Shown: positions 3,170-36,978 of the stretch, in pieces
Position numbering within the stretch: position 1 is the first letter of the stretch
How the letters are laid out: each line of letters begins with the position of its first letter
Origin: Candidatus Omnitrophota bacterium
Lineage (GTDB): Bacteria; Omnitrophota; Gorgyraeia; JAHJTE01
Reading direction: 5' to 3'
DNA length: 36,978 nucleotides
Assembly (NCBI GenBank): GCA_018830005.1
Contig: JAHJTE010000003.1
Span: forward strand, 265,674-302,651
The notes under the pieces: model-generated
What the model was told of the DNA's origin: nothing
Database searches by the model: none
Seen by the model: the letters and a program-made list of their open reading frames with translations, nothing else
Program-made: the position numbers and the translations under genes

Positions 3170-3175
3170 TAAATA

Positions 3176-4005: not shown

Positions 4006-4058
4006 GTTCCCTACACCTCCTTTTATATACAGACGATCTCGAAATGCTAAGTTGTGAC

Positions 4059-4439: not shown

Positions 4440-4497
4440 AGTCTACACCCCCTCAGCTATATTTTACACCCAAATAATGTTTTTTTGGGAATTTTTA

Positions 4498-8800: not shown

Positions 8801-11800
8801 CCAAAAAAGTTAATCAATCTAGCACATGTCTCTTTAAACTCTTCTTCAGTCATCTCTGAATAAACCCATCTGAATGTATAAGCACTCATAAAGTAATCCA
8901 AAGAGCCTTGCTGTGGTAAATATATTTCTGTATCATTCCCACTCCTATACAACCCCAACCCTGCATCATGCAGCATCATCCTTATTCTCTTACCCACCGG
9001 TGACTCTCCCACCGGCTCTTGGTAGTAGAATACGTGGCCGTCGGTGGAGCCGGGAATATCGCCGTCACGAGAATCAAGAAGTGAGTCTTCATAAGTCTTA
9101 ATTATCTCTAACTGTCGCGAGAGGAGCCAATGCTCGCAGATATCGTATTTATCAGTATCCATTAGCCTTAGATCTCTGATTTCTGTCTCAATCCTTGCCT
9201 TTAGCTGACTTAAGGCATTTGGCGTCTTTCGTCTTCTTCCTCTTGGGGTGAAAACTTCCTTTTCAAGCAACTCTCCTACAATCTTGCGTTCATCGCTATT
9301 AAGTTTCCTGCACGCTAATGCTCTATGATTAAGCTTCCTGCGAGAAATTTTACCATCGCTATTTGTTAAAAATAAAAAACCGGTTACATTATTGTCTCCT
9401 TGAGTATACACTCCCAATAAACCCCAATTCAATCCAGCAGCCCTTGCTTGAATCTTTATCATTTGACCGTCAAGTTTATATGATATAGACAAATAGGACG
9501 TTATTGTAGATTTGCTGAATAATCTTACAAGGCAAGCCCCAATTCTTTGGTGGGAAGTAGCCTTTCTTTCGATATAACCTTCGGGAAGCTTACTTGTAAA
9601 TCTGGAATTAAACCAATCATTCAATTGTTCCTCGGTACTTAATCGCTTCTTCAGCTCAAGTATTGTCTCACCAGGTTGCATTTTCTCTATACTTTTAACT
9701 TTTCCATTTTCTAATTCCACAAATTCTCTTCCTATTGGTACTTCACTTTCGTTAAAAACAACAATAACGCAATAATTATCTCCTCTCTCATCAATCCCAG
9801 TGTAGCCTTTTCTATTAGCATATTTTTTGTAACCACTTAGAGCGTTCATCGTTGGAATAATATAGATAGCTCCATTCTTATCAATCCAGATAGGCAGCCA
9901 TTGCGGAACCCTGCCTTTGACATTTGAAGCAACAAAAGCCTGCCAGTCTTTTCTTGCCTTTTTAACATTCTTATTATCTTCTTTTTCTATTTCAAGAATT
10001 TTCTTTGCTTCTCCTACGTCGAATTCTCTCTTCAGTAAATACTCTCTTGCCTTCTTAATCCAATTTCCGATAGTTAGATCTGAGTATTTTTCTCCATCCT
10101 GATTTCTTATACCCATATCATAAAGTATGTATGTGATCTCCTCTTTTGTGTGAGGATTTCCATCTTCTAAACCACAAAAGAAACTAAAGGCCAAAGCCTT
10201 ATTCGGCTCTATAAGAGCATAATCACCTAAATATTCTATTAATCTAGCTCCTCTTTCAGTCACATCCTGATCCCCATCTTCCTTAGCTTCCTTTAATTTA
10301 TATGCCTCTAGAGAAATTTCGCTTAAGAACATCTCTCCAGCTAGTAGCTCTCCTCCCTCAACTCGTCTCTCATCATCAAGACTTACTTTATCCCGCTCTA
10401 TACTCTTACCAATAAACGCAGTATATATGCCGTCTTTAATCATAGGGGCTAGAAATGTGCTTAATTTTGTATCCTGGGTGAAGTCATACCTTTTCTTGCC
10501 CTTTAAAATTTCTGTCAGGCAACAAATTCCTGCAACAAGTAATTCCTCTTCATCATAGAGGCCTAAAAGAAACCCAATTCTGGGGGTTGAATGAATTATA
10601 TTCTGAATAAGCCCTTTATTTTCCTCCACAAATTGCACTAAAGCCTCCTGGTTGCCGATTTCGATTTCTCTATACAAACGTCTCCTTCTCTGTTCTCCTG
10701 GCTCTATATATCTCAGAAGTAGCTCTCCTGCATCTCTGACTCTTAAAGGAGATTGGTTAAGTAACCAAACAAAAGCATTCTCTGCTTTCTCTACTTTATA
10801 CTTGCCTGCCAACTCTCTAAAAACATCTTTCAGCGTGCTTACATAATGGCGTCTCTTCTTGCTAGGCAACTTGCTTTGCCTGATAATCTTCTCTAAAGTC
10901 CTAAATAGATAAGAGTATTTTGCTCCTCGGCTCATCTCTGGAGTTTGATCCTGCTCTCCTTCAACATCAATCTCATAGTTCAAAACCCAGTCAATATATC
11001 TATCTATAGCTCTTACCAGCGCCTCCAGATCGCCCCTTCTAAGCCACTCTTGCAGCATCCCTCCTGATACCCCGCCGTTTTTGGAGGCAATCGCTGCCTT
11101 TCCTTCTTTCATATTTTTCCTATACTCTTCAATAATCTCCTCCTGTGAATCAGGAATACCTAAATCGCTCAAGAAACTTTCGTCTAATTCCTCAGATCTT
11201 TTTTCGTAATACAACTGAATAAATCTCTCAGTCAAATATAGTCTGCGCGCTGGACTCTTTAATATTTCATACATAATGTCATCAGGATGAGGGCATTGTT
11301 TGGCGATAGCAATAAAATCTGGCTCTATCTCTAATGTTAGCTGATAGAGTAAATAAGGCTCGAATGCCAGAAAATAAATCAAAGGATCATTTTTTGAAAT
11401 ATCAATGATAGTGGTAATATCTTCATCGTAAACATTTCCAAAACAAGGAATTGCCGTGCAGTAATAATATACATTTCCGTCACAATTTACAGTCACTGTC
11501 TGTGGTAAATAACAATAATCTACGTCTTGTCCATAATAATCTGTTCTTTTTCCATTAATAAAATTTTCTGTTGTGCCATAATCCCCGAGATAACATTCCT
11601 CATTTAAAAGTTCAGCGAATCCTAACCTGCTAACAAAATCTACACCTACAATAAATCTATACTCTCTACGATTTTTAATTAGGGTCCAGTAGATAGTTCT
11701 AACTACTTTCTGTTTTTTTCCATTTCGGCCTCTTATAGATATCTTCTCTTCTACTTTAGTTTTAACAGCAAAACCTCTCCTTTTTAATTCAGACTTCAAA

Positions 11801-14800
11801 ACACCTAGGCGTTTATGAACATCAGGTTCATGAAGAGAACGTATTACTAAAGAAATTTCTGGAAAATCTTCTGCAATTACTTGAACTAAATTGGCAATAT
11901 TAGAAATAGGTATTGTTCTCTGATGAAAGCTATCTAAGGAGGTATTTAAAATAAAGTAATAATCTGAAGTGGCATCTGTTTTAGCTTTTATAATTTTATA
12001 TACTTCGGATAAACTATCCCTTGCAGACCCTGGTGTACTCGCAAACTTAGCATTTGTTTGTAAGATATTGGGTTTTCTGCTATTTTCTAACAAAAATAAA
12101 ACATCCTCTTTAGCGAATGATAAAGGCTCTCCACCGCCAATACATATCTCTTTGAACCTGGGATCATTTTCTGCAAATTCCAATAAGTCTCTATACATCT
12201 TCTCTTTTTGCTTCCAATTTAATTTTCTCTGTGGTTTGCAATAAACAAACAGGCAATGAGGACACCAGGTATTACATTCTCTAGTAACCTGAAATGTAAA
12301 CATGTGCTTTAGAAATGCCAAAGGGCCTACTAAATCAACTTTGGCGGAAAACCTTTTTACAACTTCTCTTCTTTCTAAATCTACGCCTTTGCCAGTGAGG
12401 CAGTAAAAATACTTTTCTCTCCTCATTAATGCCTTTAATCTTCTTGGGTAATCATTACTACCATCCTCAGTATTCTCATTATCTGCACTATACCCCGGCC
12501 AGTGCGCCTTACGAATTGGACCAAAGAAGATATCGGTTGTAGTGGGTGTTTCTTGAGAGTGGTGATGTCTTTTATTTTGTGGGTCTTCTGCATCTTCTTC
12601 GTCATTATCTTTTTCGGAATAAACTAATTTCGCATCTGTAGCCATTAAGATATGTCCATTAAATATATTGCAATCGTAATGGCCTTTTTCATCAAAGATA
12701 TATTTAATACTTTCGGGAATTTCAATTGACTTCTCAAACGTCCTGGTACTGATGAAGGTACCATTAACATAAACAAAGCTATCATCTTCTGCAAAAACAA
12801 CACACATAAGCTCTCTGTCCTCCATATTTCTTTCATTCATGTAATAAAGAAGTGTCCAGAGAAGCAGTGCCTTATCTCTGTGACTTCCAGTTACAAAGGC
12901 CAAGACCTCATCCGGCAACATAATCCTATCAAGGCTGCCAAATACAGACTTAAATCCTTGGATATTTCTGACAAATCTTATCGCATCATCTAAGCTGTAC
13001 ATAAATCTCGCATTATCTTTTGTGTGTGTTTCTTCTAAGGCCTTGGCTGCGTAAACTTCAGGGTATTTAACCTTAAGGCTTCTAAATGCATACAATGCAG
13101 CTTCATACTCAAAATATTCTTCGGCAAGATTAAATGCGTATTTTTGCAAAGTTTCTGCTGAATCAAAATCTTGAATATTGATTGGTGCGCCTCTTCTATC
13201 AATAAATCTTATCCCAGACAAATCTGGTATATTAAATTCTGCTCCAAAGAATTCGCTTAATCTTTTATAAAACTTAACTACTGTATCTTTGGACATAGTT
13301 GAAATGCCTAATACAGAATTAAAAATGCCGCTAAAGGAAACGAAACTGTCAGTACATGGAGCTGCAAATTCTCTATACCAATCTATATTCTCGCTTAATT
13401 CTTTAAACTTCTTCTTAGAATACCAATATAAATTAGAAAATACGTATCCTTCATCTATATCTATGAAGACCGCAAAATGTATTTGTGTGCCAAATATAAA
13501 TATTTTTTCAAATGGAACCTGAGTAAATATCGATATTAATGATAAAAATGCTGCATCTAATGTGGCAAATGATGCACATTTACCTTCTGCCTTATTATCA
13601 TGCCGTATCCTTCTATAAGCATGCATTAATTCAATAATTTCATTCTTCATGCGTGCCCTATAGCCCTGCCTATAGGCTGTTGTTGTACTGAATCCTCCGT
13701 AGCCTCCTTCATCAACAGAGAAAAACTGGTCTAATCTATCTATGATTTGCCCCACTACTTCATCACCTAAAGCGGCCTTTTTAAAATCAATAGTAGTCCA
13801 ACCCCACCTACATCCTTCAGGCCGGTCAGATGTTGAGAAAGTATTTACATAATAATGTTTTAAATGTCCTTCTAGACTTCTTAATGATTGCGCTGTACTC
13901 CTGCCTTTAGTCTTTCTTTTTATTATCTTCCAGGCCAGAGGCGACATCATATTAGCTAGCCAAGCTGAAAGCAATAGCTCAGGATGTGCAGCAATCTCAA
14001 AATAATCCCATGTAACTGCCCAAGATAATCTTTGCTTATAGATATCTGACATTAATACTTCTCCTAAACGCAGAATCTCATGTGATTCATATTCAAAAAA
14101 CAACTCAAATATCAAATGTCTATCCTGAACATTGTAATCCTCCAAAAGAATCTCAAAGGCCTTTTTTAGTATAGGCAATAATACTGGTTTGCTATCAATT
14201 ATTGATACTAAACTTGAAACTAAACATGGAAAATCCAACTCAATGATTCCAAACTTGCATTCCCTAATCTGCTGTAAATGGTATTCAAGATACGCCTTCA
14301 TAATCCTTGCCAACTCATTAGCATTTCCCTGCTTCGCCAACCTGTATAGCATCCCTCCTGACACCCCACCGTTTTGAGGAGAATTACCGCAGACTTGCTC
14401 AGAAAGTAATCTTTTCTTCAATTCTAAAGCTAGTTTATCTTTAATAGCTCCTCTAGTGGCATTCTCTTTTTTTATTTTCTTAATTGCTAACTGCAGCTCT
14501 TTTCTAAAAATAGCGACTTTTTTATTGTCTCCTCTAATCTTATCCGCTAGGGCACCTAAAGTATTTCCTTCTTTAAGAATATTAAACAATTCCTCATTTG
14601 AAAGAGTTAACCCTTTTTCTAAAATTATATCTTCTTCCCAAGACCACTGACCTCTCTTTTTAATCTCTCGTATCAAGATTTCATCTACTTCTAAAATAAT
14701 TATCCACTTTAAAAGAGTATCATAGTAAGGATGTAATTCTGAATCTCTCTTTCTTATCATCCCCTTGTTTACCTTTGTAATCTCAGAATCCTCAAGGTCT

Positions 14801-32800: not shown

Positions 32801-35800
32801 TTATTTCTTCTAAAATCCTCGAAATCTTTCCTGGTTAAACCTAATTTATAAAATACTGCTACTAAGGCATCTATGTAGGAACCATTAAAGCAAGAGACAG
32901 TATCTTTATCCATCACGCTAGCTAATTCCCAAATTAGGAAATGGCCTCCTGTTATATACAGGATACTGGTCTTTAAGACCTCTTTTTCTCTATCTGATAA
33001 GTTCTTCAGATTATCATATCTATCTATAATATCCGGCCTATATTTGCCAAGAAAATGTCTCGCATTCTCTATGGATTTCTCAAGAGTTGACCAGTCCAAA
33101 GGAAAATCAAATCTAGTTAAGTTAAGTTCAGGGAATAAATCAATAAGAACACCAATGTGAGAATTGTATTCAAGGTTAGTCCTCTGATCCCTGGCACCAG
33201 AAAGTCTCCAATTATCAAAGCAACGCTTGGTTATTCTGCAGACGTCGTATCTTAAAGCCGCCTGTTCCTGAATCGACAGATTCTTAAAGTTAGTATATCT
33301 TTCTATAATGTCAGGTCTGTATTTGCCAATAATATCCCGTGCGTGCTTTAGTGTGTTTTGCGCAATTCTATAAGGCCATGCATCTGAATCAGGCAATTCT
33401 AGCTCTAGGCCTTGTTCAGTTAGAAGATGCGATACAGAGGCAACATTGCCTTCATTATCAAGGACTAGTTTATTTTCACCAATTTTTTCTCTGATTTTTT
33501 TACCCTCTCTTAAATACACACCAACAATTACTTCATTATTGCTGCTCTTTAATACCCCCCAATATACTTCTTGCAGTGCATAAGGCAGATAGCCGCCCAG
33601 GACCTTGCCAGCAAAAATCATATATATGTTTCCTAAGGCATCCACCCGAGCCGGAACAAGCCGTGGATAAGGTCTTCGACGTATACTCTTAAACCACTTA
33701 CTGCATCTAGACCCAAGCTCTATGCGCATAATATATTCTTGAGGGCTTTCATAAACTCGTGGTCGATCAGTACCATTTTTCACTGAAATTTCAGAGCCGT
33801 TGCGTCTAATTCTATAGTAGCGCTGATATGCTAACTCTGCTCCCCTTGTACTTAATCTATAGAATCTTAATATAAACCAGTCTCTGCCTCTCTGGCCCGC
33901 AGCAATCCTTATCTTTTGGCCTCTTGAGTGCTCTGGTATTTCAAGTCTAAAATTATCATTTATTTTTATGTCAGAATTAAAAATGTCCTCGATTGGTTCT
34001 GGCTGTTCTACTTTAGCACCTCCTAAGATGAAGGCCCATAATTGTTTAGTGAATCTTTTCCTGAGTGCCTTTTTGATTTTTCTGGCTTGTTTTTCTTTCT
34101 CTCTTCTACTTAAAAATTCACTATACCCGTCTTCCCCATAAAGATATCTTGCAACTCTATCTATTGCCTTCTCTATAAGTATCCGGATATCTTCGCGGCT
34201 ACGACCACCCATTTCTCTTCCAATCTCAACAAGGCTATTATCTTTAGACTCTAGCTTCTTAGAAAGGGCACATCTTTGAAGTTCCGTAAGTTTGGCCTTT
34301 GATAAAATCTCTGCTAATTTTCCCTCACGCTGCATAACTTGAAGACTAGCCCATGGATCTTTAGCACTAGGATCTTGAACTTCGTCTATATCGCCTGTTC
34401 TGTAATATCGCTTTATATTGGAAGAGGCTATACAGGAGGAAACATCTGAAAGCCTAAGTAGTCCAGAAGCGGTCTTAGCGTCCACTCTCAGATAATCCAT
34501 GATTTCTAATTGCGTTGGTTCTTCTAAGCCTTCCTCTAAGCCCAGCATTACTTTAAGTTTTATAACAGCTCTTTTTAGATTGAGCTCTCTATAAGGAGTA
34601 AATCCTAGAAAATCATATACTTGCCCTAGAGTCTGATACCTTGCATAATCAATGAAACTTTTGCCTTTGCTGTAATCAAAATATTTAAATGCTACTAATC
34701 TTAAGGCCTCACGTATAAAGTCCTCAAATCTCCCCTGGGTTATTCCTAAGGAGTATATTCTACTTTGAACCAACTTATACCCGAATTTAAAATAAATAAA
34801 TCCTTCTGCGTCTCTAAGATATAAATTACCCAACTCCTCTAATGCCTGCTCATCAGCGTCTCTTTTATAACGCCTAAGTAAGATCTGTGCCTGAATGGTT
34901 TTGTTGTCTATGCGACATACCAAACCATCATAAGTCCAGCTGCTATTCGGATGAAGTGCTGAATGTAAATTTAGCCGTCTAAAGCATGCACCCTTTAAGT
35001 AATGCGCAAGGGGATGTCTCATCTTTTGAGCGTTGCCATTACCATTAATCTCATCTAAAACATTGGGCTTAAAATATAAGCTGTTTATTTTAAACTTCTG
35101 CTCTAAGATAGCTTTCAAATTTAGCAATGTTGCTATTTGCCAAGATGCCTCTACTTCAGCAACAGCCTTAGAATCACTCCTTCTATATCCATTAGTCTTA
35201 ATATCAGAGACTAAAAATGAACTGGCTTCTTTGCCTTCAATATTTACAAACATACCAGTAATGCGCCCATATGAACCATTGCCATTAGAATGTGCCAAGG
35301 CTTTATTATCTTGAAAAGGATAGACGTCAATATATATTTTACCATTAGCATTTCCAGGCTGAGTTGCCTTAAGTCTTGCCTCTGTTCTTATATCTCCATA
35401 ACCCCATTCCAATGCGGGGTTTGCCTTTATTGCTGCTCTTAAGGTCTGTAGGGAATTTCTCATACCTTTCTTAGCATTTAAACTAGCAAGCACCCCAGCA
35501 AGAAACACCTGTTGGCTGGAAAAATAACCAGAAACAAAAGACTGAATATCAGGATTAAGTGAGAAAATGATTGATGCTTGATGGTTGATATTTGAGAAGA
35601 AAGGAAGAACTTGCGAGAGGTAATTTGTTACCGATGAGAAGAATTGACCGATAACTAATGCTGGTGGTGCCTGGGGCTGCAGTGTGTCTGTAAGTATTCC
35701 CTGCGTATGGCTGATTTCAAAACTAAATAAACACGTCAATAAAAGCAAAGATAATATTAATGGCGATTTAACAACCAGACCAAGACGTTGGGTATTTTTG

Positions 35801-36978
35801 GATTTTGTTGCTTTGGAACCAGGTGAAGATTTGACAAGGGCCTTAGTTTTTCTTGAGGGCCCATCTCTGCCATATTTATTTCTATATGTAGTATCTCTCC
35901 TGTTGAAGACTGTAATTTCTCCTTCTCCCCTAAATTCAACTTCATTTTCGCCTATCTTAGTTCCTCTTCTTATACAGGTTCCTGCAAGGGAATAATCTTT
36001 CCTAAGATAAACTCCAAAGATTACTCTAGCCTTATCGCTATACAAAGGCCTATAAACAACATCTGCAAACAAATAGCGCTTATATCCACGCAGGAATTTC
36101 ATAGAGCCCTTCCATTCAAAAAGAGGGATACTACACCAAACACCTATTACTCCAGGCACATCTTCAAGACAGGGTTTTGTTCGTTTTCCTTTAAACCATT
36201 CAAAAACAGCTCTCCTTGCCTTAATTCGGCTACGATATTCTTCTCCAGTCTCCCAGATTCTAGGACTTTTACCTGGCAGAAAACAACGCAATTTTACTTG
36301 TTTCTTAGCTTTCCTTTCAATAATATAGTATTGACGATATAATATCTCTTCTGTCTTCGGATCAAGAAATCTCACCATTAAGTAGTTAGTATCCCTCTCC
36401 TCAGCAATAATGCGAATATGCCTGCCTTGAAGATATTCTGGTACTCCAATAAAGAGACCTTTACCTAAATATAAACTTGTATTAAAATAACCTTCGATTG
36501 GCACTAAATCTTCTTGAGCGTCATTTATGATAATTGATGCCCACCGCAGAGCCTCTTCTCTGATTGACCTCTTGAGCATACGAGCTTTCTCTTCATTTTC
36601 AGAAAAGGCATTAAACCATCTCCTTCCATAGAGTGAAATTAGGACTCTTTTCCTTGCTTTATTTCTAATCTGCCGTACTCCTTCTGAGGTATTGATATCA
36701 ATTTGCTCTATAATTTCCCGATATTTTCTACCTGCCAGATATGCCTCTAGAACAATTATTTCTCTCTCAGTTAAATCAGCTATTGAGAGGGCCTGTTGTA
36801 ATTGACCTCTCTCATATTTATCTCTAAGTATAGTATTTGCGTCCACTGCATTTGGATCAGGAAATGCATCTATTGAACCTGTAGCGTGATATTCTTTGAT
36901 TGCTGCATTAAGTATATTATTGCCAGGCTCTCCAATGCCAAGTAGACGACAGGCAATATCCCATCCTACATCTAAATA
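5827..36978 (-). CDS. Giant multidomain membrane-anchored protein (at least 10,383 aa; likely 5'-truncated by the window)
   Basis: ORF track gives 10,339 aa from a GTG at 36844-36846. My reading of the 44 codons 36847-36978 finds no in-frame stop. Ends in TAA TAA TGA at 5821-5829. Recognisable domains along its length argue that it is real. Confidence 0.95.
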   Translation of the reverse strand, partial: YLDVGWDIACRLLGIGEPGNNILNAAIKEYHATGSIDAFPDPNAVDANTILRDKYERGQLQQALSIADLTEREIIVLEAYLAGRKYREIIEQIDINTSEGVRQIRNKARKRVLISLYGRRWFNAFSENEEKARMLKRSIREEALRWASIIINDAQEDLVPIEGYFNTSLYLGKGLFIGVPEYLQGRHIRIIAEERDTNYLMVRFLDPKTEEILYRQYYIIERKAKKQVKLRCFLPGKSPRIWETGEEYRSRIKARRAVFEWFKGKRTKPCLEDVPGVIGVWCSIPLFEWKGSMKFLRGYKRYLFADVVYRPLYSDKARVIFGVYLRKDYSLAGTCIRRGTKIGENEVEFRGEGEITVFNRRDTTYRNKYGRDGPSRKTKALVKSSPGSKATKSKNTQRLGLVVKSPLILSLLLLTCLFSFEISHTQGILTDTLQPQAPPALVIGQFFSSVTNYLSQVLPFFSNINHQASIIFSLNPDIQSFVSGYFSSQQVFLAGVLASLNAKKGMRNSLQTLRAAIKANPALEWGYGDIRTEARLKATQPGNANGKIYIDVYPFQDNKALAHSNGNGSYGRITGMFVNIEGKEASSFLVSDIKTNGYRRSDSKAVAEVEASWQIATLLNLKAILEQKFKINSLYFKPNVLDEINGNGNAQKMRHPLAHYLKGACFRRLNLHSALHPNSSWTYDGLVCRIDNKTIQAQILLRRYKRDADEQALEELGNLYLRDAEGFIYFKFGYKLVQSRIYSLGITQGRFEDFIREALRLVAFKYFDYSKGKSFIDYARYQTLGQVYDFLGFTPYRELNLKRAVIKLKVMLGLEEGLEEPTQLEIMDYLRVDAKTASGLLRLSDVSSCIASSNIKRYYRTGDIDEVQDPSAKDPWASLQVMQREGKLAEILSKAKLTELQRCALSKKLESKDNSLVEIGREMGGRSREDIRILIEKAIDRVARYLYGEDGYSEFLSRREKEKQARKIKKALRKRFTKQLWAFILGGAKVEQPEPIEDIFNSDIKINDNFRLEIPEHSRGQKIRIAAGQRGRDWFILRFYRLSTRGAELAYQRYYRIRRNGSEISVKNGTDRPRVYESPQEYIMRIELGSRCSKWFKSIRRRPYPRLVPARVDALGNIYMIFAGKVLGGYLPYALQEVYWGVLKSSNNEVIVGVYLREGKKIREKIGENKLVLDNEGNVASVSHLLTEQGLELELPDSDAWPYRIAQNTLKHARDIIGKYRPDIIERYTNFKNLSIQEQAALRYDVCRITKRCFDNWRLSGARDQRTNLEYNSHIGVLIDLFPELNLTRFDFPLDWSTLEKSIENARHFLGKYRPDIIDRYDNLKNLSDREKEVLKTSILYITGGHFLIWELASVMDKDTVSCFNGSYIDALVAVFYKLGLTRKDFEDFRRNNWIKRYGWKDGIAQGIGNVREVLSRETPHIIEAYDNLSRLSEEEKSILMQWIYQISSAHFEVLGLSSARDDRKAPYFCGSHIDCLIKVFSGLPLDRDKFNPRPLPASKETQTTNPKQLISLAKLALILCTVLVAWLFSFETGHTQEILTDILQPQAPPLYLVNTIVHSFVPLSFISYLTPTLSILSSLKDVDLLLSRLLDSLPLALSPAMKGFLQHISPYLGAWAILNLLFAVYDTFSASDKKAGQRFSIRLFLKNFGRLISTHFSICFVTAVIISGVMFNFFPLSIFENILLIAFGLACIAIVVCGIRQPILEKRRHNPEYRAKKIFEDIFGEIPESEKTILVLKKIYKYIDGANQHIQDLRKETFIKKKRIFPKEYDWIGALRQSFKLIRKHKISKKINKVAKQKPSVSEIVTDLKSSLKQLKSFISKNTHVREGEVDLKLNELEGLLKDLLIRLTEYAIYLRTGKWQSFAGVFDEKTDTNSTSMDRLLVSGVEEKRIASVNEVDLHIHSSFDNGDLSPIDIVSQALKKGLKAIAIVDHLKDGFSFTAFREALKAVKGTSLEIIPGLEIRTKDQDSMRDMLVYFPDLQEFKENMQDLIQTQPKRYSSVQEVIDWAHRFGGVVIYAHPGAFGKKKEDASDEKIFELFKRGLDGLEIDHKLYRTRDRIHLLALIEKWNEEHPNDQKTYTIGSDYRSSIYKGYPCEIGVGWTGRKGHPNVRHYSYEEIIPPLKNKSKHKDGNRGFITLGSLFLIIAVGLILVPTIWNLVFDILPNWDTSSTGVVFLAAMNDNRQKISPRQLPRNLLETYDVPPNHIRSILNKGVVKTVLPKFSPKEEVRILDLANLTDMSFDISGFRLIFYYYDRSERQDNLLNKVDAVSGLGQESILVIYMPCLDKIHFKNLRRVSIYPEIVEDLAIYERKSTNNRVMPSLPFTREAKRQNYDQALAMLKDINSLHRLKAILLALAIDGGFQALAYRYCKAFLSEILGKGNNETRKELRDYIQMLLGNKSLVINKVFRIVAITQIKKLDNDLIHGLILSFWLTIGIVDLFSSASGQAQTLNLAGPGSFHTALIIIALELLVFTCIAVCTHRSLDDSQKVILVVDNTEIMLDKEKDREFVGIGGTGLGRTYDAIADVTMPLATDKYLIDDQEPFRFSVGPCVFVIIHNHKNKRTYPIHKRRVELDEAIRLIDIAYEDMGNGEEIEVHAGGLALFDDFQLEHNRQLFAFRGRIINHLASKGYKNIRLLFPSLCTTFTDITFDTKNSSAVYCFGFYSYSEDLQTPSQRITNKKLIEIQSQKATQDLPSLDSLQPLGTDSPLTAGLGGILISNKAYDHIRTAMHPLHLVQVHDISDSAEALGKQFEFTDVNKLLLLKWLDLRWLDKVFKKSHQNNFVLIGGAIEYCLLTTFKHISKAFNRIFSSEKDICEIHIPFYLDISRPWPDSLLYCIRDLAFQNKGIVKRADLELLAQTISKDQREYLDREEFNLKYSFYFDGSTRLRNGSNCDFKDEQIRVYFWSDVKAMSASGQFDAYLRNNTQAERKRSSMLFGTMFLMLAVALCALGLALLAQNSELILRLASLVYGEFCRTTQDFVAHNTLIAGMLAGGVNLKRLTCLADTKHTQKANPSLKRLIRNALAVAETDTVKMKELIKILKLYLGGSNYQIDRFVRAKLRELSKAFPDFIEDIPERLLPTEEELEEYKRRLRNDHIIFIDTLTGAEVGEISLPGGFKRPKKMIEDKIDELMDEKGYNNLLINGVITDEDGKIRLWDYNSSVYFASARTSLMITRGFDSTKLIRSASIIEDQAYIKLCATAINNLPKQIEIKLKSLSGYPIILRNIFYRERLNIDKKGNIRGKARTISAGELEEILTACLESEFVYNEIFDMQGSIIATYLYKFPEDIKLSENSAIISTGNNGQFIFGAKRKYYFTHIINGLILVFSEGLIPKETIEISNLSVSGRRRAAVYLQKNLGEQDNLIWRDEGIEWSEVFKELDDGSIIRAKNLEVKKPARIHFNYEMYNLDSNKFKYGDSAVAWFVKSNGRLLLLYYMKLEDYEACHFDAYVGEYVSACSGGNVFETFYHRFPTPAQIQTMFKQYNTDELRIENRLTTLEGTLKICTSKGSGDYIDYWIGLKKEPLAVWMDKYSGLPQLAMRLKDLRAANYDATAYKLSVKEGRGLVQKVTLKEFLVEEIPLAKHVRLELKRRGELLGRLLVSPIEEVLSKYPHLIKVALDLFTPLGRIDDIGDIGTLSNNLKERLGPLDSLRGVNDLGRIREIFNRLSEDLGCESISILKEVYGAEKDLSIKLIIFILLRNQLDLLKFGNHSDEIVNLRIDMHEAIESEINNIKILLEKVVDYREVVDLIIRYSQLMMAEQIDIEFRKGLFNYRNSKEIEEIGSAICDKTLEYTASSKKEILEIYYQLIPDSDWDRRVANLTKLIFELRDATTLDSIEVLAESFNKVIDRDLLWLPILASLCEEEKDLQTKLVIFSSLENRLLLASSDVKKEGHNQTRFERMFSCLIEKKFVEVNSLLANANSWNKVLALTAKYMYLKRVVDINISLLKGDIYLPNIDHLQEIEAALPERAFKYNTTDGIRKIIKTFSKELFVAVGENSIVRAKRLERRIDACFWLAARIEIYNKNKVRHAFMELPSKWQAIFYVRIKERVPIVVTGSLFNATFTSISKRLGETIRGLTYAENITPQLRRDFKEVLSEVCSDLDDDYLRNIYRDFLYEYKEEQIDRLFKGAKKYFTPRHNCLVNQVVKEVRRQRRLLLVRIRQVAQGRNSNTPFDKTMADHLLRPLAESCSRSLLDFRTEDLRTLYLRFAFNFEYKELARIFGLSQRAIMDRINLVVSKLMKDSGFFKDSVIEGLSIIFKRLAENDGYKADVEKALNISCIEILRKRAMQIGYELPLSNGNGYMGNGNGRGVRLIKYSRRVLRLLEKTNNVSKVSEGFGLSELDLAQEAFDVYQRNFVSQGSNTVGSRIVILQLLDRLYDKLKIIEPVQVRLWKQGLLGDIELHLKQIEAILRKADPTEFERALKIVGEVEFTFNLANVLDYGTIHRLENRLALIKKEIRRKKGTIPAGIESLRSEIKYDLSRAFALVDNGCLNGNSYNLFKIILKVIANKILTLGRLEDDFDSYQSNRTYYIPELRLLAACIQINMAREKGSNFASLRFKDMDTATILEPCAMGVLKANGQMYKEYEDRTYYELGKAWAGGHVVRYKDLPKKVKDRIDPEIARTLEQENFYFILGTTEPNIWYFTQDIFLNAVTIHKAKGKVKAGAYIPVTLLGLSVSEKVINYELSHLQGAKEDKTESEALAKEVQEAWQSDHIASLKRLTCLGDTQHTQKANPPLKHLIQNALIQAQRDDRMKEFIPILKSFLDGSNYEIDRFARKILLGLKPRFYRQLADVQPRSLRAGLTREDLIELAEDDKLVFIDAETGKKLGKLPALRAGNKFKKYPESRDEMINRLMDDEGHSGLYVLGVTVNRHGRLLRVLGKSPSVLFAHAKTAILITKNSAGEKLIRKTLILEDCSEDSEYIDKCLKAVEDLRGKGNIATKYLKGYARILGNLCVNERFSLDREGNVKWKNQTIQFSELKGLFQDYLRQGEIYSEIFDIDGNLISVYRAQFPKNIKLTKNVVITSTDNQGRFNFPCNEQLRKTGTVDDLILVFNVDTAPLEFIAVSNIDKFETSLESHRLTYLQRNITEEDKLICIGDRKTEVYRELDDHSVVRHMNLKAKERKGMVGIWFNFVFYILDRDKFEEGDRMVAWFEKVNGEFWLLYCQKLKDYLVLRPDIDVFEYAVTFDEHGNVLNSTKKGFPSPDEIKEMFNKYGAKYIRSEGAYTNSRGHLRRQHRVDGVDCNFHRNIGIKNEPLALWFDKLSGLPVLAVKLKDLRSANFNTTVYKLSVKDSKGLVEAQRLRTFLKEDILLAITIRLAFERNERILLRLSSYSIKEVFKKYPNLATIIANIDTNELRRRMLIRKVRRGDKAASAQFCEENDPLIRWIVKRSPAIKAFLKFTTMEDILQMGRYFLQYIITDERYAFDAGFNFSSYAVPALRGLILNGLKEQYSLDFNAEASFKKTDRWQSRAFCSLSKFEVERASLARHNQLESMLDRGNDSIVAKARECLADLSIEFPYRVMAFNMKLGLEDDVVYSYGEIAAYLFGLGVKGENGDQFTGETIRLWFNFVKEKLLIKLCGNAQAKKTIEKDKKRRDNKKEIAREWDSYFKSNMKGDPPLGLYILVGVAGYIWISKNLQITDYKEHAGAEVFVDIDKNDISEGCCAVNVFNGRGTSIGRHYVEVKKGKVIKCLDMQISQRIADFKERLRVRDKWANWMQLPFERKPPEEALVRIVYSGGRRRGAGIAVPVPNNSSVHISLPPELIGQELKVEVKGSGFNWHLWRVATLRDVVVVGGIIRKDNNKGGLIHNKLNNNLLILSRLNKEERNNILALFEDEVLAVRGRRSKGIKALEKLQSTIEGEVGDLRQSIGNGYDICQHWLLLRQLEIIKIYKASNGHSVPRPCGMGVLKADGQMYKEYEDRTYEELETAWDDGRVVGVRNLYSNFFVQIEPYQEILKALEKRGVFIVLPDPKKDPREMPSVWYKSLKIFLAAVTIKKSKGKVKSGIYIPLTLILLLVKFKRVGLLKEILKHELDNLKGKKENKHRSERLAEQVLSVWKEEERERRRSRKQAARLAEAILKPGSKITIHKLKLEEQNALARAAHEGDGQAQDALRQLLYFYAETLAYKWQWTFSCKDILGAFDKAIPKIITNYNPDRPNGSNLKSLAYKKFGQIRIDLWRKASRRRESPLDESLEQPSLAMCEEELEYILDELLRPVKIRGGNPGRDRLIFKIRIMGRLCGKEVSYREIGVHFNLEKSSVCIQYSQVSKCVISHYAKKPLPRSLVGRLDIERWRALLNYFIQNSKNNNSLSVGPKKTSGKVKGNSRQYFPEDPSTADMFFGSIRKAHYRKEERSSENKRKGPPVKWTRQILSEAFRNPPTEIKDVRSSSQWEDAGYRGIIKVAIRIYGSWHKFLESQGIKPIERKEWTEQTLSEAFRNPPTEIKDVRSSSQWQEAGYRGMVKVTFRIYGSWLDFVKSQDIQPIEKKGRIPKWTEQTLSEAFRNPPTEIKDVRSSSQWQEAGYGGMVEAVRRIYGSWLDFVKSQGMKPCCESCVYQKFTQHYDNPKVVKDILNGKTKVKSEDMSLEQQVKLAKEVQKGNLAAYQALMYSLEWLAKKISKEYRLKYFNLDSDQRLSACLKAIPGIVARFDPEKWDKTIGAYAYKRFMGSIDDKARSELRREKRENTSSLDRSLNEKDERGRRPQTLLDKLIPEEQLPELTQQEAETRLKELLKPINASERNKQMFILAALHRSGIINMNQEEIARQFNCSPSNISRNYKSITRKLGLISNNSHLARSTHEDVESPQIKRHHHFPEAPTAADMFFGPVRVAHLRRESSRKKTSGALYYFGGGKACGRASMRSALGGKGANLAEMARLDLPVPPGFTIPNKIVRRYDENRNSLPKGVSELIFQGVSEIERRTKKVFGHVKKFGDLKNPLFLSVRSGAEESEPGRYKTYTKIGLHRITLDAYGREIGDMHRAYLDFLLYFMSYIAECVSQDDAGFDEGVNKIVDEIPSLRENYYMDRYDILPKLISLDKLKEMVLKAERLFEQKTGKKFPTPKRQLMLAVKSVIQSSYFVCGAACNIQAYVFGNIGDEKSGSGVIFTRNPLNGEKGIYGSFKFNAEGSEVVGRLKIVDNILCKWDRPEGLDALQKYLPQQYLELEEFALLLEKHFYEIQDIEFTIQNGKLFILQTRGNEKFSTPLARVRILLDFVKEGLISEEDALGRFREEEYEDCSNFDVPSSVRLEHLWWTKTYLESPVLRKDLERKPIASGIIVLPGIVSGPIITDCTNPKGRKGIAVIFNVMEFERLQTITPEAIERRISGAISYGGGFADYIVVRMRGAQKIIPHLTRINLQIHSNTVKFSRTNAEVKIGSWLILDGNTGHVYKGKLSSKDLEDSEITKVNKGMIRKRDSELHPYYDTLLKWIIILEVDEILIREIKKRGQWSWEEDIILEKGLTLSNEELFNILKEGNTLGALADKIRGDNKKVAIFRKELQLAIKKIKKENATRGAIKDKLALELKKRLLSEQVCGNSPQNGGVSGGMLYRLAKQGNANELARIMKAYLEYHLQQIRECKFGIIELDFPCLVSSLVSIIDSKPVLLPILKKAFEILLEDYNVQDRHLIFELFFEYESHEILRLGEVLMSDIYKQRLSWAVTWDYFEIAAHPELLLSAWLANMMSPLAWKIIKRKTKGRSTAQSLRSLEGHLKHYYVNTFSTSDRPEGCRWGWTTIDFKKAALGDEVVGQIIDRLDQFFSVDEGGYGGFSTTTAYRQGYRARMKNEIIELMHAYRRIRHDNKAEGKCASFATLDAAFLSLISIFTQVPFEKIFIFGTQIHFAVFIDIDEGYVFSNLYWYSKKKFKELSENIDWYREFAAPCTDSFVSFSGIFNSVLGISTMSKDTVVKFYKRLSEFFGAEFNIPDLSGIRFIDRRGAPINIQDFDSAETLQKYAFNLAEEYFEYEAALYAFRSLKVKYPEVYAAKALEETHTKDNARFMYSLDDAIRFVRNIQGFKSVFGSLDRIMLPDEVLAFVTGSHRDKALLLWTLLYYMNERNMEDRELMCVVFAEDDSFVYVNGTFISTRTFEKSIEIPESIKYIFDEKGHYDCNIFNGHILMATDAKLVYSEKDNDEEDAEDPQNKRHHHSQETPTTTDIFFGPIRKAHWPGYSADNENTEDGSNDYPRRLKALMRREKYFYCLTGKGVDLERREVVKRFSAKVDLVGPLAFLKHMFTFQVTRECNTWCPHCLFVYCKPQRKLNWKQKEKMYRDLLEFAENDPRFKEICIGGGEPLSFAKEDVLFLLENSRKPNILQTNAKFASTPGSARDSLSEVYKIIKAKTDATSDYYFILNTSLDSFHQRTIPISNIANLVQVIAEDFPEISLVIRSLHEPDVHKRLGVLKSELKRRGFAVKTKVEEKISIRGRNGKKQKVVRTIYWTLIKNRREYRFIVGVDFVSRLGFAELLNEECYLGDYGTTENFINGKRTDYYGQDVDYCYLPQTVTVNCDGNVYYYCTAIPCFGNVYDEDITTIIDISKNDPLIYFLAFEPYLLYQLTLEIEPDFIAIAKQCPHPDDIMYEILKSPARRLYLTERFIQLYYEKRSEELDESFLSDLGIPDSQEEIIEEYRKNMKEGKAAIASKNGGVSGGMLQEWLRRGDLEALVRAIDRYIDWVLNYEIDVEGEQDQTPEMSRGAKYSYLFRTLEKIIRQSKLPSKKRRHYVSTLKDVFRELAGKYKVEKAENAFVWLLNQSPLRVRDAGELLLRYIEPGEQRRRRLYREIEIGNQEALVQFVEENKGLIQNIIHSTPRIGFLLGLYDEEELLVAGICCLTEILKGKKRYDFTQDTKLSTFLAPMIKDGIYTAFIGKSIERDKVSLDDERRVEGGELLAGEMFLSEISLEAYKLKEAKEDGDQDVTERGARLIEYLGDYALIEPNKALAFSFFCGLEDGNPHTKEEITYILYDMGIRNQDGEKYSDLTIGNWIKKAREYLLKREFDVGEAKKILEIEKEDNKNVKKARKDWQAFVASNVKGRVPQWLPIWIDKNGAIYIIPTMNALSGYKKYANRKGYTGIDERGDNYCVIVVFNESEVPIGREFVELENGKVKSIEKMQPGETILELKKRLSTEEQLNDWFNSRFTSKLPEGYIERKATSHQRIGACLVRLFSKSTITSYLSISYKLDGQMIKIQARAAGLNWGLLGVYTQGDNNVTGFLFLTNSDGKISRRKLNHRALACRKLNSDERKIVGELLEKEVFTPRGRRRKTPNALSQLKARIETEIRDLRLMDTDKYDICEHWLLSRQLEIIKTYEDSLLDSRDGDIPGSTDGHVFYYQEPVGESPVGKRIRMMLHDAGLGLYRSGNDTEIYLPQQGSLDYFMSAYTFRWVYSEMTEEEFKETCARLINFFGRDRMRYAFSRNNAAFSHNLVRIYKFGIDEFERLARHIDLEIVGKGFENNEEWFINSLNILIANERDLVWLKDLEEECSYLINMEGTNIDGYLERARQTLVGLGKMDAILASKDRDKILTKVLLSILLFRQNLLISLISKEEYRLLVYKILIQACFSEKYDNASSYFIFGIPYIKGTSFATSYFVSTCAHELDHNIFSGDCFISEIISDLGGFSILEQIGWSEDIEESQVILEYGRFKKDFALVLRTREHHYCARTQLQWIIEQLESVDYTRLFRLALMIVKKGPWMRFSIFVLELLRQYGQEIAGPSEELDPVVSEMSEKLRKGRDRLITPEEIRRIIRVFQPSDPRNGGVSEKPADIETYTLNSITDVADPLTWEILSKDLIKAMAYAATIIELGPETRFRLYEALRKEDYAGEYIAIDLAGNIADYSDEGFNYFPPDGPGDIYDIDFMHKVIEGSKSPTIIVSDAAIRYLYPEDMGFKLGNSESERQRAELLAEVFDSYPGIDVHFHLFPAVLDDKRYEEISRVYKLMAQRGWRVIRLTVKDKYDTLWIFIRPSVDMPGSLVQFLGQLNDAKLSRLIQDIVRELRQYENQIRRIHPALSIFGSASVGEADSIYNDTQDLVRKLDGNGYSIVTGGGPGVMRAANSVATSRPSVGLQIQCPKEEGNEFVDIGLMFKYLFARKRAFIDLSVGALCMPGGFGTLDEFFEIASLKDQGHINDFPLVLFDNVSRKFYQGLEERMRDLSERGLLRKRPKDLFVVLDSSQRILRYLEDEACLEKLNANNNVDIEQVIRDLYRTLKRIEKVVPAFGIVGSELVSETSPEYEQARQVTKGLANSDISVIYKGHRGISAAAAQGYKDVKGTNSQCISLLLKGNRDHSNHASMNLGFSYTFEQKMALIRHSSLGFVFLQGGTGTLDILFEVLCLMQLEKIEQVPVVLLGRDFWQPWHTWFKKTLLPAGVIVEEDLNRYRIVDTYQEAVAIIEDFYLGRLL
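5830..7030 (-). other. Tandem LOG-family (TIGR00730-like Rossmann) domains at the giant protein C-terminus
   Basis: Copy 1: SIFGSA, TGGGPGVM, FARKR, PGGFGTLDE (6688-6714). Copy 2: QGGTGTLDI (6049-6075), degenerate. Confidence 0.85.
7140..7740 (-). other. Class I SAM-methyltransferase-like domain
   Basis: IIELGPET, YIAIDL and GDIYD spaced like motifs I-III. The glycine-rich motif is imperfect. Confidence 0.4.
7790..8700 (-). other. HExxH zincin-like metallopeptidase domain
   Basis: AHELDH at 8221-8235 with a downstream Glu (ISEIISD, 8188-8190) as candidate third zinc ligand. Confidence 0.5.
9088..10692 (-). other. Sigma-70-like domain plus beta-rich domain, copy 2 (535 aa)
   Basis: GNQEALVQFVEENKGLI...YDFTQDTKLSTF (region 2), GLEDGNPHTKEEI (region 4), then a domain ending YDICEHWLLSRQLEIIK. 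Paralogous to 19294-20904. Confidence 0.75.
11400..12312 (-). other. Radical SAM domain with Twitch/SPASM-like tail
   Basis: CNTWCPHC (CxxxCxxC, 12253-12276), GGGEPL, LQTNA, SLDSFH, and C-terminal YC...VNCDGNVYYYC...FGNV. Confidence 0.88.
12650..13700 (-). other. Transglutaminase/papain-like Cys-His domain followed by a degenerate second copy
   Basis: GKCASFATL (Cys 13576-13578) and IHFAVFI (His 13477-13479). Second motif PDEVL...GSHRDKALLL resembles GDCxDxAxLL with the Cys lost. Confidence 0.5.
14700..16455 (-). other. Truncated pyruvate phosphate dikinase-like module (ATP-grasp plus phospho-His swivel domain, no PEP-binding barrel)
   Basis: LGGKGANLAEM, LPVPPGFTI, LSVRSGA, VFGN...SGSGVIFTRNP, QDIEFTIQNGKLFILQTR, LDGNTGHVY. 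Confidence 0.9.
16624..17232 (-). other. Sigma-70-like domain (regions 1.2-4)
   Basis: LEQQVKLAKEVQKGNLAAYQAL, ARFDPEK...IGAYAYKRFMGSI, SSLDRSL, NQEEIARQFNCSPSNISR. Confidence 0.82.
17332..17877 (-). repeat. Three tandem in-frame repeats (183-195 nt; 61-65 aa) resembling homing-endonuclease-associated repeats
   Basis: Units start at Trp codons 17875, 17692 and 17497. Consensus WTxQxLSEAFRNPPTEIKDVRSSSQWxxAGYxGxxxxxxRIYGSWxxFxxSQ. Near-identical DNA. Confidence 0.92.
18160..18702 (-). other. Sigma-70-like domain (regions 1.2-4)
   Basis: LEEQNALARAAHEGDGQAQDAL, NYNPDR...NLKSLAY, SPLDESL, VSYREIGVHFNLEKSSV. Confidence 0.78.
18799..19263 (-). repeat. Unknown module C, copy 2 (paralog at 22846-23265)
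   Basis: PCGMGVLKADGQMYKEYEDRTY...IFLAAVTIKKSKGKVKSGIYIPLTL...LKHELDNLKG. DNA 19201-19238 is identical to 23203-23240. Confidence 0.9.
19294..20904 (-). other. Sigma-70-like domain plus beta-rich domain, copy 1 (537 aa)
   Basis: GDKAASAQFCEENDPLI...FDAGFNFSSYA, GLEDDVVYSYGEIA, ending YDICQHWLLLRQLEIIK. Confidence 0.75.
20938..22824 (-). repeat. Unknown module B, copy 2 (629 aa)
   Basis: Begins LKRLTCLGDTQHTQKANP and ends LAVKLKDLRSANF...YKLSVKDSKGLV...KYPNL. Collinear with 26137-27984. Confidence 0.9.
22846..23265 (-). repeat. Unknown module C, copy 1
   Basis: PCAMGVLKANGQMYKEYEDRTY...IFLNAVTIHKAKGKVKAGAYIPVTL...INYELSHLQG. Confidence 0.9.
24259..24390 (-). other. Isolated sigma-70 region-4-like HTH
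   Basis: EDLRTLYLRFAFNFEYKELARIFGLSQRAIMDRINLVVSKL. Confidence 0.7.
26137..27984 (-). repeat. Unknown module B, copy 1 (616 aa)
   Basis: Begins LKRLTCLADTKHTQKANP and ends LAMRLKDLRAANY...YKLSVKEGRGLV...KYPHL. Confidence 0.9.
28950..29420 (-). other. CheD/deamidase-like Cys-His domain
   Basis: SVGPCVFVIIHN...YPIH (Cys 29323-29325, His 29272-29274) and EIEVHAGG resemble the CheD pattern GLGSCVxxxxxD...H...xxFGG. Confidence 0.45.
30600..31295 (-). other. PHP-family phosphoesterase domain (TrpH/YciV-like)
   Basis: DLHIHS, AIVDH, IPGLE, YAHP, LDGLEI, GSDYR. Confidence 0.88.
32329..32450 (-). repeat. Linker motif A, copy 2: hydrophobic helix + LFSFExxHTQxILTDxLQPQAPP
   Basis: 56/64 nt identical (hand count) to 35667-35730. 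Confidence 0.9.
32506..33369 (-). repeat. Three diverged tandem repeats of 93-105 aa
   Basis: KYRPDIIERY (33324), KYRPDIIDRY (33045), RETPHIIEAY (32730). Each is followed by NLS..E...L...I....F...L and ends Y/FxxSxIxxLxxxFxxLxLxRxxF. Confidence 0.85.
34150..34882 (-). other. Sigma-70-like domain with regions 2, 3 and 4
   Basis: DEQALEELGNLY, FDYSKGKSFIDYA, EEPTQLEIMDYL, LTELQRCAL...SLVEIGREMG.RSREDIRILIEKAIDRV. Confidence 0.85.
35662..35766 (-). repeat. Linker motif A, copy 1
   Basis: SPLILSLLLLTCLFSFEISHTQGILTDTLQPQAPP. Confidence 0.9.
36643..36774 (-). other. Sigma-70 region-4-like HTH
   Basis: LTEREIIVLEAYLAGRKYREIIEQIDINTSEGVRQIRNKARKRV. Regions 2-3 may lie upstream of the window. Confidence 0.75.

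Follow-up and report, generated by a model that had tools for sequence, protein, structure and literature searches.

Sigma factors are textbook small, dissociable and separately regulated subunits of RNA polymerase (RNAP), and RNAP holds one sigma factor at a time. Can several of them nevertheless be parts of one giant protein and, if so, what would they do there? This question is raised by a 36,978-nucleotide stretch of DNA from a Candidatus Omnitrophota bacterium (contig JAHJTE010000003.1, positions 265,674 to 302,651; hereafter, the window), in which an earlier note had proposed seven sigma-70-like units within a single polypeptide encoded by a giant minus-strand gene. In this giant protein, amid enzyme and membrane domains, at least five sigma-factor modules could be recognised, along with two that are partial. 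That five to seven or more sigma modules are built into one membrane-anchored polypeptide of more than 1 megadalton is unexpected. The parts are known, in the form of extended sigma factors and of the mosaic giant proteins of Omnitrophota; their combination is new in the literature searched, in which we encountered neither a polypeptide with several sigma modules nor a giant protein with sigma domains.

The giant reading frame

The open reading frame (ORF) of the giant gene occupies 5827..36978 on the minus strand, as do all features of the gene described below; its stop codon is at 5827-5829, and the frame is unbroken up to the window end. As called from its first GTG, the ORF covers 5827..36846 and has 10,339 codons (residues are numbered from this GTG), and 44 further stop-free codons lie between the GTG and the window end. 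Because the frame is still open at the window edge, the gene has at least 10,383 codons, its 5′ end lies beyond the window, and the GTG is not the start. The 44 residues preceding the GTG can be aligned to the part of the second unit, U2, that lies before its region 4 (IK.Y..TG.ID...DP.A.D).

In run X1, a groundwater metagenome, 98% of the sampled window words were present, and contigs of this run tile positions 17000-36978 at ~80x with 0 differences and 0 indels, breaking at internal repeats only. An assembly or frameshift artefact was considered and is ruled out by this uniform depth, the identity of the sequences and the absence of a stop codon across 31 kb. The metatranscriptome run X7 yielded small, low-depth contigs at several spots along the giant gene, which are compatible with its transcription but may also stem from DNA carry-over.

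The last 141 nt of the window (36838-36978) are found in run X1 on a 930-nt contig with a depth of 169, compared to ~80 elsewhere, and positions 36550 and 36820 are joined in a variant contig, which has a cluster of mismatches at 36502-36519 (the region of note is 35648-36313). The doubled depth and the variant contig suggest a second module similar to U1 and its extension elsewhere, plausibly further upstream in the giant gene. The right end of the window, used as an exact query aimed at extending the gene upstream, gave no match.

The encoded protein holds many distinct domains, namely PHP, PPDK_N, Radical_SAM, two LOG domains and the sigma units, none of which dominates, and most of the remaining protein is Pfam-dark. 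We conclude that the giant is a membrane-anchored mosaic of the "multi-enzyme giant protein" kind, which holds sigma-70-family modules spread by internal duplication.

Homology of the units to sigma-70-family proteins

The nucleotide ranges proposed earlier correspond to residues 25-68 (U1), 655-899 (U2), 4153-4196 (U3), 5315-5534 (U4), 6049-6229 (U5), 6539-6741 (U6) and 8719-8938 (U7). When the ORF was compared to Pfam in 3,500-residue chunks there was almost no sigma signal, but a signal emerged when each unit was scanned alone. Sigma factors were the top NCBIfam match for U4, U7, U1, U5 and U3 (E-values of 5e-6 to 3e-3), the phage sigma family phrog_351 of PHROGs matched U2 (4.4e-6), U6 (9.4e-8) and U4 (1.6e-3), and all seven stretches matched sigma-70-family profiles above chance in at least one independent test.

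The units were also aligned by hhalign to a reference set of 43 true sigma factors, taken from the matches of the search of 1.84 billion representatives described below, and evaluated at the near-invariant sigma2 positions, defined as 22 positions with a conservation of 80% or more across the reference set. Sigma2 homology was found in the U4/U7 and U5/U6 pairs and in U6 alone, in U2 from region 2.2 onward only, and not in U3; the corresponding part of U1 lies outside the window. The helix-turn-helix (HTH) of sigma4 is present in U1 (E-value 3.7e-5), U6, U2 and U5, weak in U3, and undetected in U4/U7 (hhalign probability 0.7%). Of the five spans that had been taken for near-complete domains, U2, U5 and U6 have a co-linear sigma4, whereas U4 and U7 do not fit the description, their sigma2 being followed by a divergent half that is not recognisable as sigma4.

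Paralogue pairs with only 27-33% identity still keep sigma-specific positions, which points to long-term purifying selection after duplication. Judged from these sequence comparisons, the sigma-70-family homology of the units is genuine. That one polypeptide contains several sigma-70-family units, divergent from one another, was thus upheld by hidden Markov model (HMM), hhalign, PDB-profile and PHROG matches, and the HMM check that the earlier note had put forward as a possible refutation came out in favour of sigma homology. The number seven needs qualification: each unit matches sigma profiles, but self-comparison showed that U1 and U2, U4 and U7, and U5 and U6 are duplicated pairs rather than independent units. 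They fall into three types, A (U1, U2), B (U4, U7) and C (U5, U6), with U3 as an isolated region-4-type HTH. A search of the giant for further cryptic sigma copies with unit-derived HMMs found none. In a global five-way MAFFT alignment, the units were clearly out of register, and this alignment was dropped.

U4 and U7 and the tail that follows them

U4 (20197..20934, residues 5305-5550) consists of a SigF/G-like sigma2 and a divergent, helical C-terminal half, and U7 (9982..10722, residues 8709-8955) is its paralogue, again with a sigma2 and a divergent C-terminal half. The NCBIfam SigF/G match had an E-value of 5e-6 for U4 and 2.5e-4 for U7. With a joint profile of the two, ~30 sigma factors of solved structure were matched in the PDB, always over region 2 and most significantly SigF (1l0o_C, E-value 3.6e-7). 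Against the 43 reference sigma factors, this profile reached a probability of 99.3%, over sigma2 only. By eye, the C-terminal half of U4/U7 resembles an HTH with an insertion.

The units had been said to lack canonical DLxQEG and WWIR motifs. This is only partly true: the motifs of U4 (EDILQMG and FSSYAVPALRG) are close to those of the SigF/G type (EDLYQIG and FSTYAVPMIMGEI), a type that is itself without the WW of housekeeping sigma factors. U2, U5 and U6 have lost the DLxQxG-type signature of region 2.2 and are far more degenerate there than U4/U7. The near-invariant sigma2 positions are kept at 15/22 in U4, 13/22 in U7 and 14/22 in P0002, a distant relative described below, at an overall identity of only 23-30%, and the positions kept are the 2.1/2.2/2.3 positions conserved in true sigma factors. 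This pattern indicates that the canonical sigma2 surface of U4, U7 and P0002 is under purifying selection.

Each of the two units is followed by a copy of a tail, designated tail D (19267..20196 after U4 and 9052..9981 after U7), made up of a charged helix, a beta-rich domain and a C-terminal YDIC.HW helix. The copies are paralogous in self-comparison (E-values down to 9e-31; copy 2 is residues 8955-9255), and the tail is also present in P0002. Each unit was duplicated together with its tail of ~300 residues, residues 5310-5853 corresponding to 8714-9255.

U5 and U6

U6 (16603..17259, residues 6530-6748) is the best sigma unit and extends from sigma2 to sigma4. It matched the NCBIfam superfamily TIGR02937 over the full length (positions 6-161) with 49.1 bits, relative to a cut-off of 42.9 (E-value 4.6e-13). 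U5 (18133..18729, residues 6040-6238) is a divergent sigma2-sigma4 unit that matched TIGR02937 with an E-value of 2e-3 and is a paralogue of U6 (BLASTP 8.8e-8; residues 6032-6175 align with 6523-6691 in self-comparison). Both have a compact sigma2-sigma4 layout, and their joint profile matched the reference sigma factors from sigma2 to sigma4 (probability 96.8%, E-value 2.8e-10, 184 columns). Against the PDB, the same profile found ArsR-type HTH proteins only and no sigma factor, and single-sequence phmmer searches of the PDB with U6 and with U4 gave weak matches.

Between U5 and U6 there are three tandem 65-codon repeats (17332..17881; Tandem Repeats Finder period 195, 2.9 copies), which encode 65-residue repeats (WTEQTLSEAFRNPPTEIKDVRSSSQW...YGSW..F..SQ) with an 86% match between copies and a match to PF18780 (HNH_repeat) below the cut-off (E-value 1.4e-4). 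Logan contigs break at this tandem repeat.

U1 and U2, their membrane-anchored extensions, and U3

U1 (36622..36978, residues -43 to 75) contains the region 3/4 linker and the region 4 HTH and is cut by the window edge; the sigma4 match given above is to region 4 of TIGR02937 over residues 8-68, and the profile sig.hmm matched with an independent E-value of 1.7e-4. What the earlier note described as a lone region 4 HTH at 36643-36774 owes its appearance to the window edge, because U1 is truncated and its upstream codons align with U2. U2 (34132..34899, residues 650-905) is a divergent sigma2-sigma3-sigma4 unit that aligned with the reference sigma factors co-linearly from region 2.2 through region 3 to region 4 (probability 72%, E-value 3.3e-5, 177 columns) and with sig.hmm at positions 69-248 (independent E-value 2e-5).

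Both units are followed by an extension, designated the X1 extension (35827..36621 after U1 and 33427..34131 after U2), which consists of a charged helix and a beta-domain. The first copy is paralogous to residues 905-1136 in self-comparison (E-value 3e-16), and region 4 was duplicated together with the ~250-residue extension, residues 14-312 corresponding to 842-1136. An hhalign comparison of the X1 extension to tail D gave a probability of 65% (E-value 5.9e-5, 142 columns); in both, a beta-rich domain comes after a long charged helix. The segments that follow four of the units are therefore possibly homologous.

A transmembrane (TM) helix with a juxtamembrane motif, FSFE..HTQ.ILTD.LQPQAPP, comes next (first copy at 35554..35823). 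This segment is present twice, at residues 342-431 and 1453-1537, with 42% identity and 76% nucleotide identity (repeat D3). TM1 (residues 355-373) follows U1 and its X1 extension, and TM2 (residues 1466-1484) follows U2, its X1 extension and repeats, as predicted by hydropathy only; the two are homologous, have positive-inside flanks and show higher conservation than the adjacent sequence. In total, eight TM helices are predicted by hydropathy, all between residues 355 and 2914. Because none is predicted after residue 2914, the C-terminal 7,400 residues, which hold U3 to U7, the PPDK_N-like, radical-SAM-like and two LOG domains and an HExxH motif, would lie in one compartment, presumably the cytoplasm.

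U3 (24235..24450, residues 4133-4204) is a region-4.2-type HTH only. The earlier note had listed a lone region 4 HTH at 24259-24390, and it is indeed an HTH only, but a weak one (Pfam Sigma70_ECF E-value 2e-3, r4_2 4.6e-3; hhalign probability 56% and E-value 1.2e-4 over just 38 columns). About 100 residues upstream of U3, a faint extra region-4-like HTH (ELPSKWQAIFYVRIKE...FTSISKRLGETIRGL) is seen at 24757-24921 (residues 3976-4030); its independent E-value against the sigma profile is 0.47, which is not significant.

AlphaFold2 models based on two-sequence alignments had a predicted local distance difference test (pLDDT) score of 43.7 for U4 with its tail and 55.2 for U2 with its X1 extension, in which the part comprising region 4, the helix and the beta-domain scored 65-83. 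Foldseek searches of the PDB with these low-confidence models gave no match at E-values of 0.001 or less, a result that is uninformative rather than negative as to the fold.

Relatives of the sigma modules

When 1.84 billion representatives were searched exhaustively by HMMER with a profile of U4/U7 and their tail, 88 matches were obtained. Of these, P0001 is a 45-residue fragment of the window protein itself, P0002 is the relative mentioned above, and the rest are mostly proteins of ~100-350 residues; all nine of the matches that were checked carry Pfam Sigma70_r2, and most also r3 and/or r4. P0002 (2,139 residues, Logan assembly) has one sigma-plus-tail module, the sigma2 of which passes Pfam Sigma70_r2 with 45.6 bits, and a signal-peptide-like, hydrophobic N terminus. 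It is the only relative, and a distant one, of the sigma-plus-tail module among the representatives, such that the present case amounts so far to a single sequence and one distant relative. No sigma unit was found in the upstream neighbour of P0002 or in P0089 (2,775 residues, from a Candidatus Omnitrophica metagenome-assembled genome (MAG)), the only relative of P0002.

Searches of GTDB species representatives, JGI metagenome contigs and IMG/VR with the sigma-plus-tail module retrieved no relatives. A word-indexed protein database returned nothing with a 5000-residue chunk or a three-sequence module alignment as queries, and P0002 was found there only with itself as the query. A phage or defence-island origin of the locus was considered and rejected, there being no PADLOC match, no PHROG match beyond sigma and no IMG/VR relatives.

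Comparison to known sigma factors and giant proteins

U4 and U7 match group 3 sigma factors (SigF/SigG/SigB/FliA type) over regions 1.2-2.4, including N..L(I/V)..I(V), EDILQ.G and FS(S/T)YAVP..(R/I)G.I, and U2 is co-linear with this group through region 3 to region 4. However, group 3 sigma factors are free-standing proteins of ~25-30 kDa, whereas U2, U4 and U7 form part of a chain with more than 10,383 residues and fall under the family cut-offs, and U4/U7 are without a detectable sigma4. A second group is that of the ECF (group 4) sigma factors and the TIGR02937 superfamily: U6 passes TIGR02937 over the full length, U5 and U3 are sub-threshold matches of ECF type, and U5/U6 share the compact layout. 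Unlike ECF sigma factors, these units do not stand alone, no cognate anti-sigma factor was detected for them, and a degenerate signature is seen in region 2.2.

Sigma factors with TM extensions that are freed by regulated proteolysis have been described as IutY/ECF243 and ECF48/52/53 (PMC8999054), and a tethered sigma factor can be activated through cleavage (PMC8999054; PMC5826349). The order found in these proteins (e.g., SCO4117), in which a sigma factor is followed by an extension, a TM helix and an extracytoplasmic segment, occurs twice in the giant, in the U1 and U2 modules. In contrast to the giant, each known protein has one sigma factor, with an extension of up to ~400 residues and a zinc-finger or anti-sigma domain, neither of which was found in the giant, and the U1 and U2 modules have a group-3-like sigma with region 3 inside a giant mosaic, with an extension predicted to be a helix and a beta-domain.

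PhyR contains a sigma-like domain that binds an anti-sigma factor by mimicking a sigma factor. PhyR resembles the giant in that a degenerate sigma-fold domain is embedded in a larger protein, where contact with RNAP is unnecessary, and Pfam contains the entry PF22233 (PhyR_sigma-like). It differs in having a single sigma-like domain, coupled to a receiver, and in targeting the anti-sigma factor NepR, and U4, U7 and U6 are less degenerate. A Pfam scan across the giant ORF found no Response_reg (receiver) domain and no NepR-like partner.

The "multi-enzyme" class of Omnitrophota giants (bioRxiv 10.1101/2023.11.21.568195; 10.64898/2026.06.07.730766) shares with this gene a groundwater origin, a length of more than 10,000 residues, TM anchors, many unrelated Pfam domains, including radical SAM, ancient internal duplications, and a largely sequence-unique and Pfam-dark composition. 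In contrast to that class, the part of this gene within the window shows no C39/S8 peptidase or dockerin domain. Sigma-factor domains have 0 occurrences in these two preprints, and no sigma Pfam entries are present in the supplements examined. The polyvalent proteins of phages and conjugative elements are likewise large mosaics of unrelated domains and may be processed, but their context is a phage or plasmid, whereas the giant gene is flanked by PilZ genes, an MNT-HEPN pair and an AAA_14/DUF4143 ATPase gene and has no PADLOC or IMG/VR match.

Other domains and border motifs

Enzyme domains identified in the giant are a PHP phosphoesterase domain (30667..31299; PF02811, E-value 4e-9), a PPDK_N-like domain (phosphoenolpyruvate-utilising, ATP-grasp; 15397..16395; PF01326, E-value 1.5e-24), a radical SAM-like domain, which contains CxxxCxxC and weakly matches SPASM (11407..12291; PF04055, 27.7 bits, compared to a cut-off of 29.5) and, at the C terminus, two tandem LOG/"lysine decarboxylase-like" domains (5851..7089; PF03641, E-value 1.6e-38, two stretches), which self-comparison showed to be an internal duplication.

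Two short motifs recur at the borders of such domains. The L3 motif (..KRHHH..E.PT..D[MI]FFG[PS].R.AH, direct-repeat family D2) occurs before the radical SAM domain (12498..12597), after U6 (16482-16581) and after U5 (17928-18027). The motif NGGVSGGML, located by a regular expression on the translation, occurs after the PPDK-like (14347..14394), radical SAM (11053-11100) and HExxH (7732-7779, as NGGVS) domains. Given their positions at the borders of unrelated domains, L3 and NGGVS are candidate processing or docking sites.

Two motifs were noticed in Pfam-dark domains: HExxH (CAHELDHNIF) at 8221-8235 (residues 9538-9542), and a cysteine motif of the G.C..FA type (EGKCASFATL) at ~13560-13620 (residue ~7745). 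These could be peptidase active sites, as candidates without any family match.

Two further duplicated modules have no family match. One, of ~620 residues and 34-48% identity, is encoded at 26122-27999 and 20950-22840 (residues 2953-3573 and 4673-5306), and the other, of ~155 residues and 44% identity, at 22822-23319 and 18800-19300 (residues 4516-4668 and 5850-6017). The shorter module opens with PC.MGVLKA.GQMYKEYEDRTY, and in both modules, conservation of the initial residues extends to the nucleotide sequence (D4-D6).

Possible roles of the sigma units

The interpretation that we favour, tentatively, is that the units are latent while tethered in the giant and become active as sigma factors after proteolytic release. 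Tethered units would be latent as in pro-sigma factors and sigma/anti-sigma fusion proteins; the type A units, U1 and U2, would be freed via membrane-proximal cleavage, and the other units would be cut at the recurring border motifs D[MI]FFGP and NGGVS. Each freed unit might then steer RNAP to its own promoter set, such that one long translation product would deliver enzymes and a transcription programme together. Release seems most likely because RNAP accepts its sigma factors singly and the units are tethered thousands of residues apart, and it is favoured by the precedents of pro-sigma factors and sigma fusions, by the order of sigma, extension and TM helix, by the border motifs, and by a published proposal that Omnitrophota giant proteins are proteolytically processed (bioRxiv 10.1101/2023.11.21.568195). 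An extended version, which we regard as unlikely, is that of a "sigma-factor polyprotein" cleaved at the border motifs into distinct sigma factors and enzymes, which would replace or supplement alternative sigma genes in reduced-genome Omnitrophota or reprogramme the RNA polymerase of prey or a host.

Several results weigh against release of active sigma factors. U6 is the only unit to pass a curated cut-off (Pfam gathering or NCBIfam), the other six being under every cut-off. No sigma4 was detected by hhalign in the C-terminal half of U4/U7, and without a recognisable sigma4 these units would not recognise the usual -35 element. A cytoplasmic location of U2 requires that a weakly hydrophobic segment also crosses the membrane. 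The Pfam scan of the part of the gene within the window found no protease domain, just the HExxH and cysteine motifs, and that of the giant ORF, including the X1 extension and tail D, found no anti-sigma or zinc-finger domain. A DNA probe for D[MI]FFG..R.AH matched, in other genomes, only an unrelated conserved alphaproteobacterial gene. The structure models are too poor for fold assignment or docking. No related multi-sigma protein was found in the databases searched, and hence there is no comparative support.

Some of these results would be expected if the units are never freed and instead serve as sites that dock or sequester RNAP on the membrane-anchored giant, as a core-RNAP sponge or decoy, or for localised transcription beside the enzyme modules. 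If core binding alone matters, sigma2, the main core-binding domain, should be the best-conserved part and sigma4 could become unrecognisable, as is the case in U4/U7; the protein is anchored by the eight predicted TM helices, and a protease domain was undetected in the window. However, the co-linear sigma4 HTH kept in U2, U5 and U6 is needless for a pure core-binding decoy, no precedent is present in the literature searched, and stoichiometric sequestration by so costly a protein seems inefficient, such that this role appears unlikely. A sigma fold could also have been reused as a protein-protein or DNA-binding adaptor or regulator that acts without RNAP, in the manner of PhyR, which is an established case of a degenerate sigma-like domain in a larger protein. 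We consider this doubtful, albeit worth serious attention: the sub-threshold scores of six of the seven units, the loss of the region 2.2 signature in U5, U6 and U2, and the reduction of U3 to an HTH are what would be expected of such mimics, but most of the near-invariant sigma2 residues are kept in U4, U7 and P0002, U6 passes TIGR02937 over its full length, and the Pfam scan detected neither a receiver nor an anti-sigma partner domain.

It is improbable that the giant or fragments of it are delivered into prey or a host, where the sigma modules would be effectors that redirect the RNA polymerase of the victim. Phage-encoded sigma factors provide a model for such an activity, the best PHROG match of the units is a phage sigma family, the N terminus of P0002 resembles a signal peptide, and Omnitrophota include predatory or episymbiotic nanobacteria with giants linked to prey interaction (bioRxiv 10.1101/2023.11.21.568195; PMC10066038). 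Yet the PHROG match reflects generic sigma homology, no secretion or injection domain was found by Pfam in the window, the radical SAM, LOG and PPDK-like domains are typical of cytoplasmic enzymes, and on sequence evidence the assignment to Omnitrophota is no more than probable. There is an equally slim chance that the sigma-like stretches are decaying, functionless relics of sigma genes swallowed by gene fusion. The high divergence of the units, the mostly Pfam-dark protein and its near-singleton status among 1.84 billion representatives are in keeping with decay; against it, the 31-kb frame is still open, old paralogue pairs keep their sigma-specific positions, and the module of sigma and tail is conserved in P0002.

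If the units are released and active, transcription programmes could be tied, in stoichiometry and in timing, to the production and processing of one giant protein. This would be the first concrete function for a part of the largely unannotated Omnitrophota giants and would provide a handle on their cleavage, a convenient one because the sigma units are small, assayable and located beside recurrent border motifs. If the units are RNAP decoys or sigma mimics, the PhyR principle would be extended to a new scale.

Genes flanking the giant gene

Three genes encoding PilZ-domain proteins (438, 126 and 134 residues) lie at 3676-5814 on the minus strand and begin 12 nt past the stop codon of the giant gene. 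This spacing on the same strand suggests co-transcription and a link to cyclic di-GMP signalling. A nucleotidyltransferase gene (NTP_transf_2/Polbeta, with an N-terminal HTH) and a HEPN gene at 2570-3583 on the plus strand look like an MNT-HEPN toxin-antitoxin pair. Further left, at 992-2155 on the minus strand, a gene encodes an AAA_14 and DUF4143 ATPase, with its best matches in Omnitrophota MAGs at up to 81% identity; it is 69-81% identical to MAG proteins labelled Omnitrophota, Actinomycetota, Clostridia, Planctomycetia, Nitrospirota and others, and is very widely shared, probably horizontally mobile and hence a poor indicator of taxonomy. The window contains no marker gene. The left flank also contains a perfect 7-nt microsatellite, GTCGTGT x 4.3, at 472-501.

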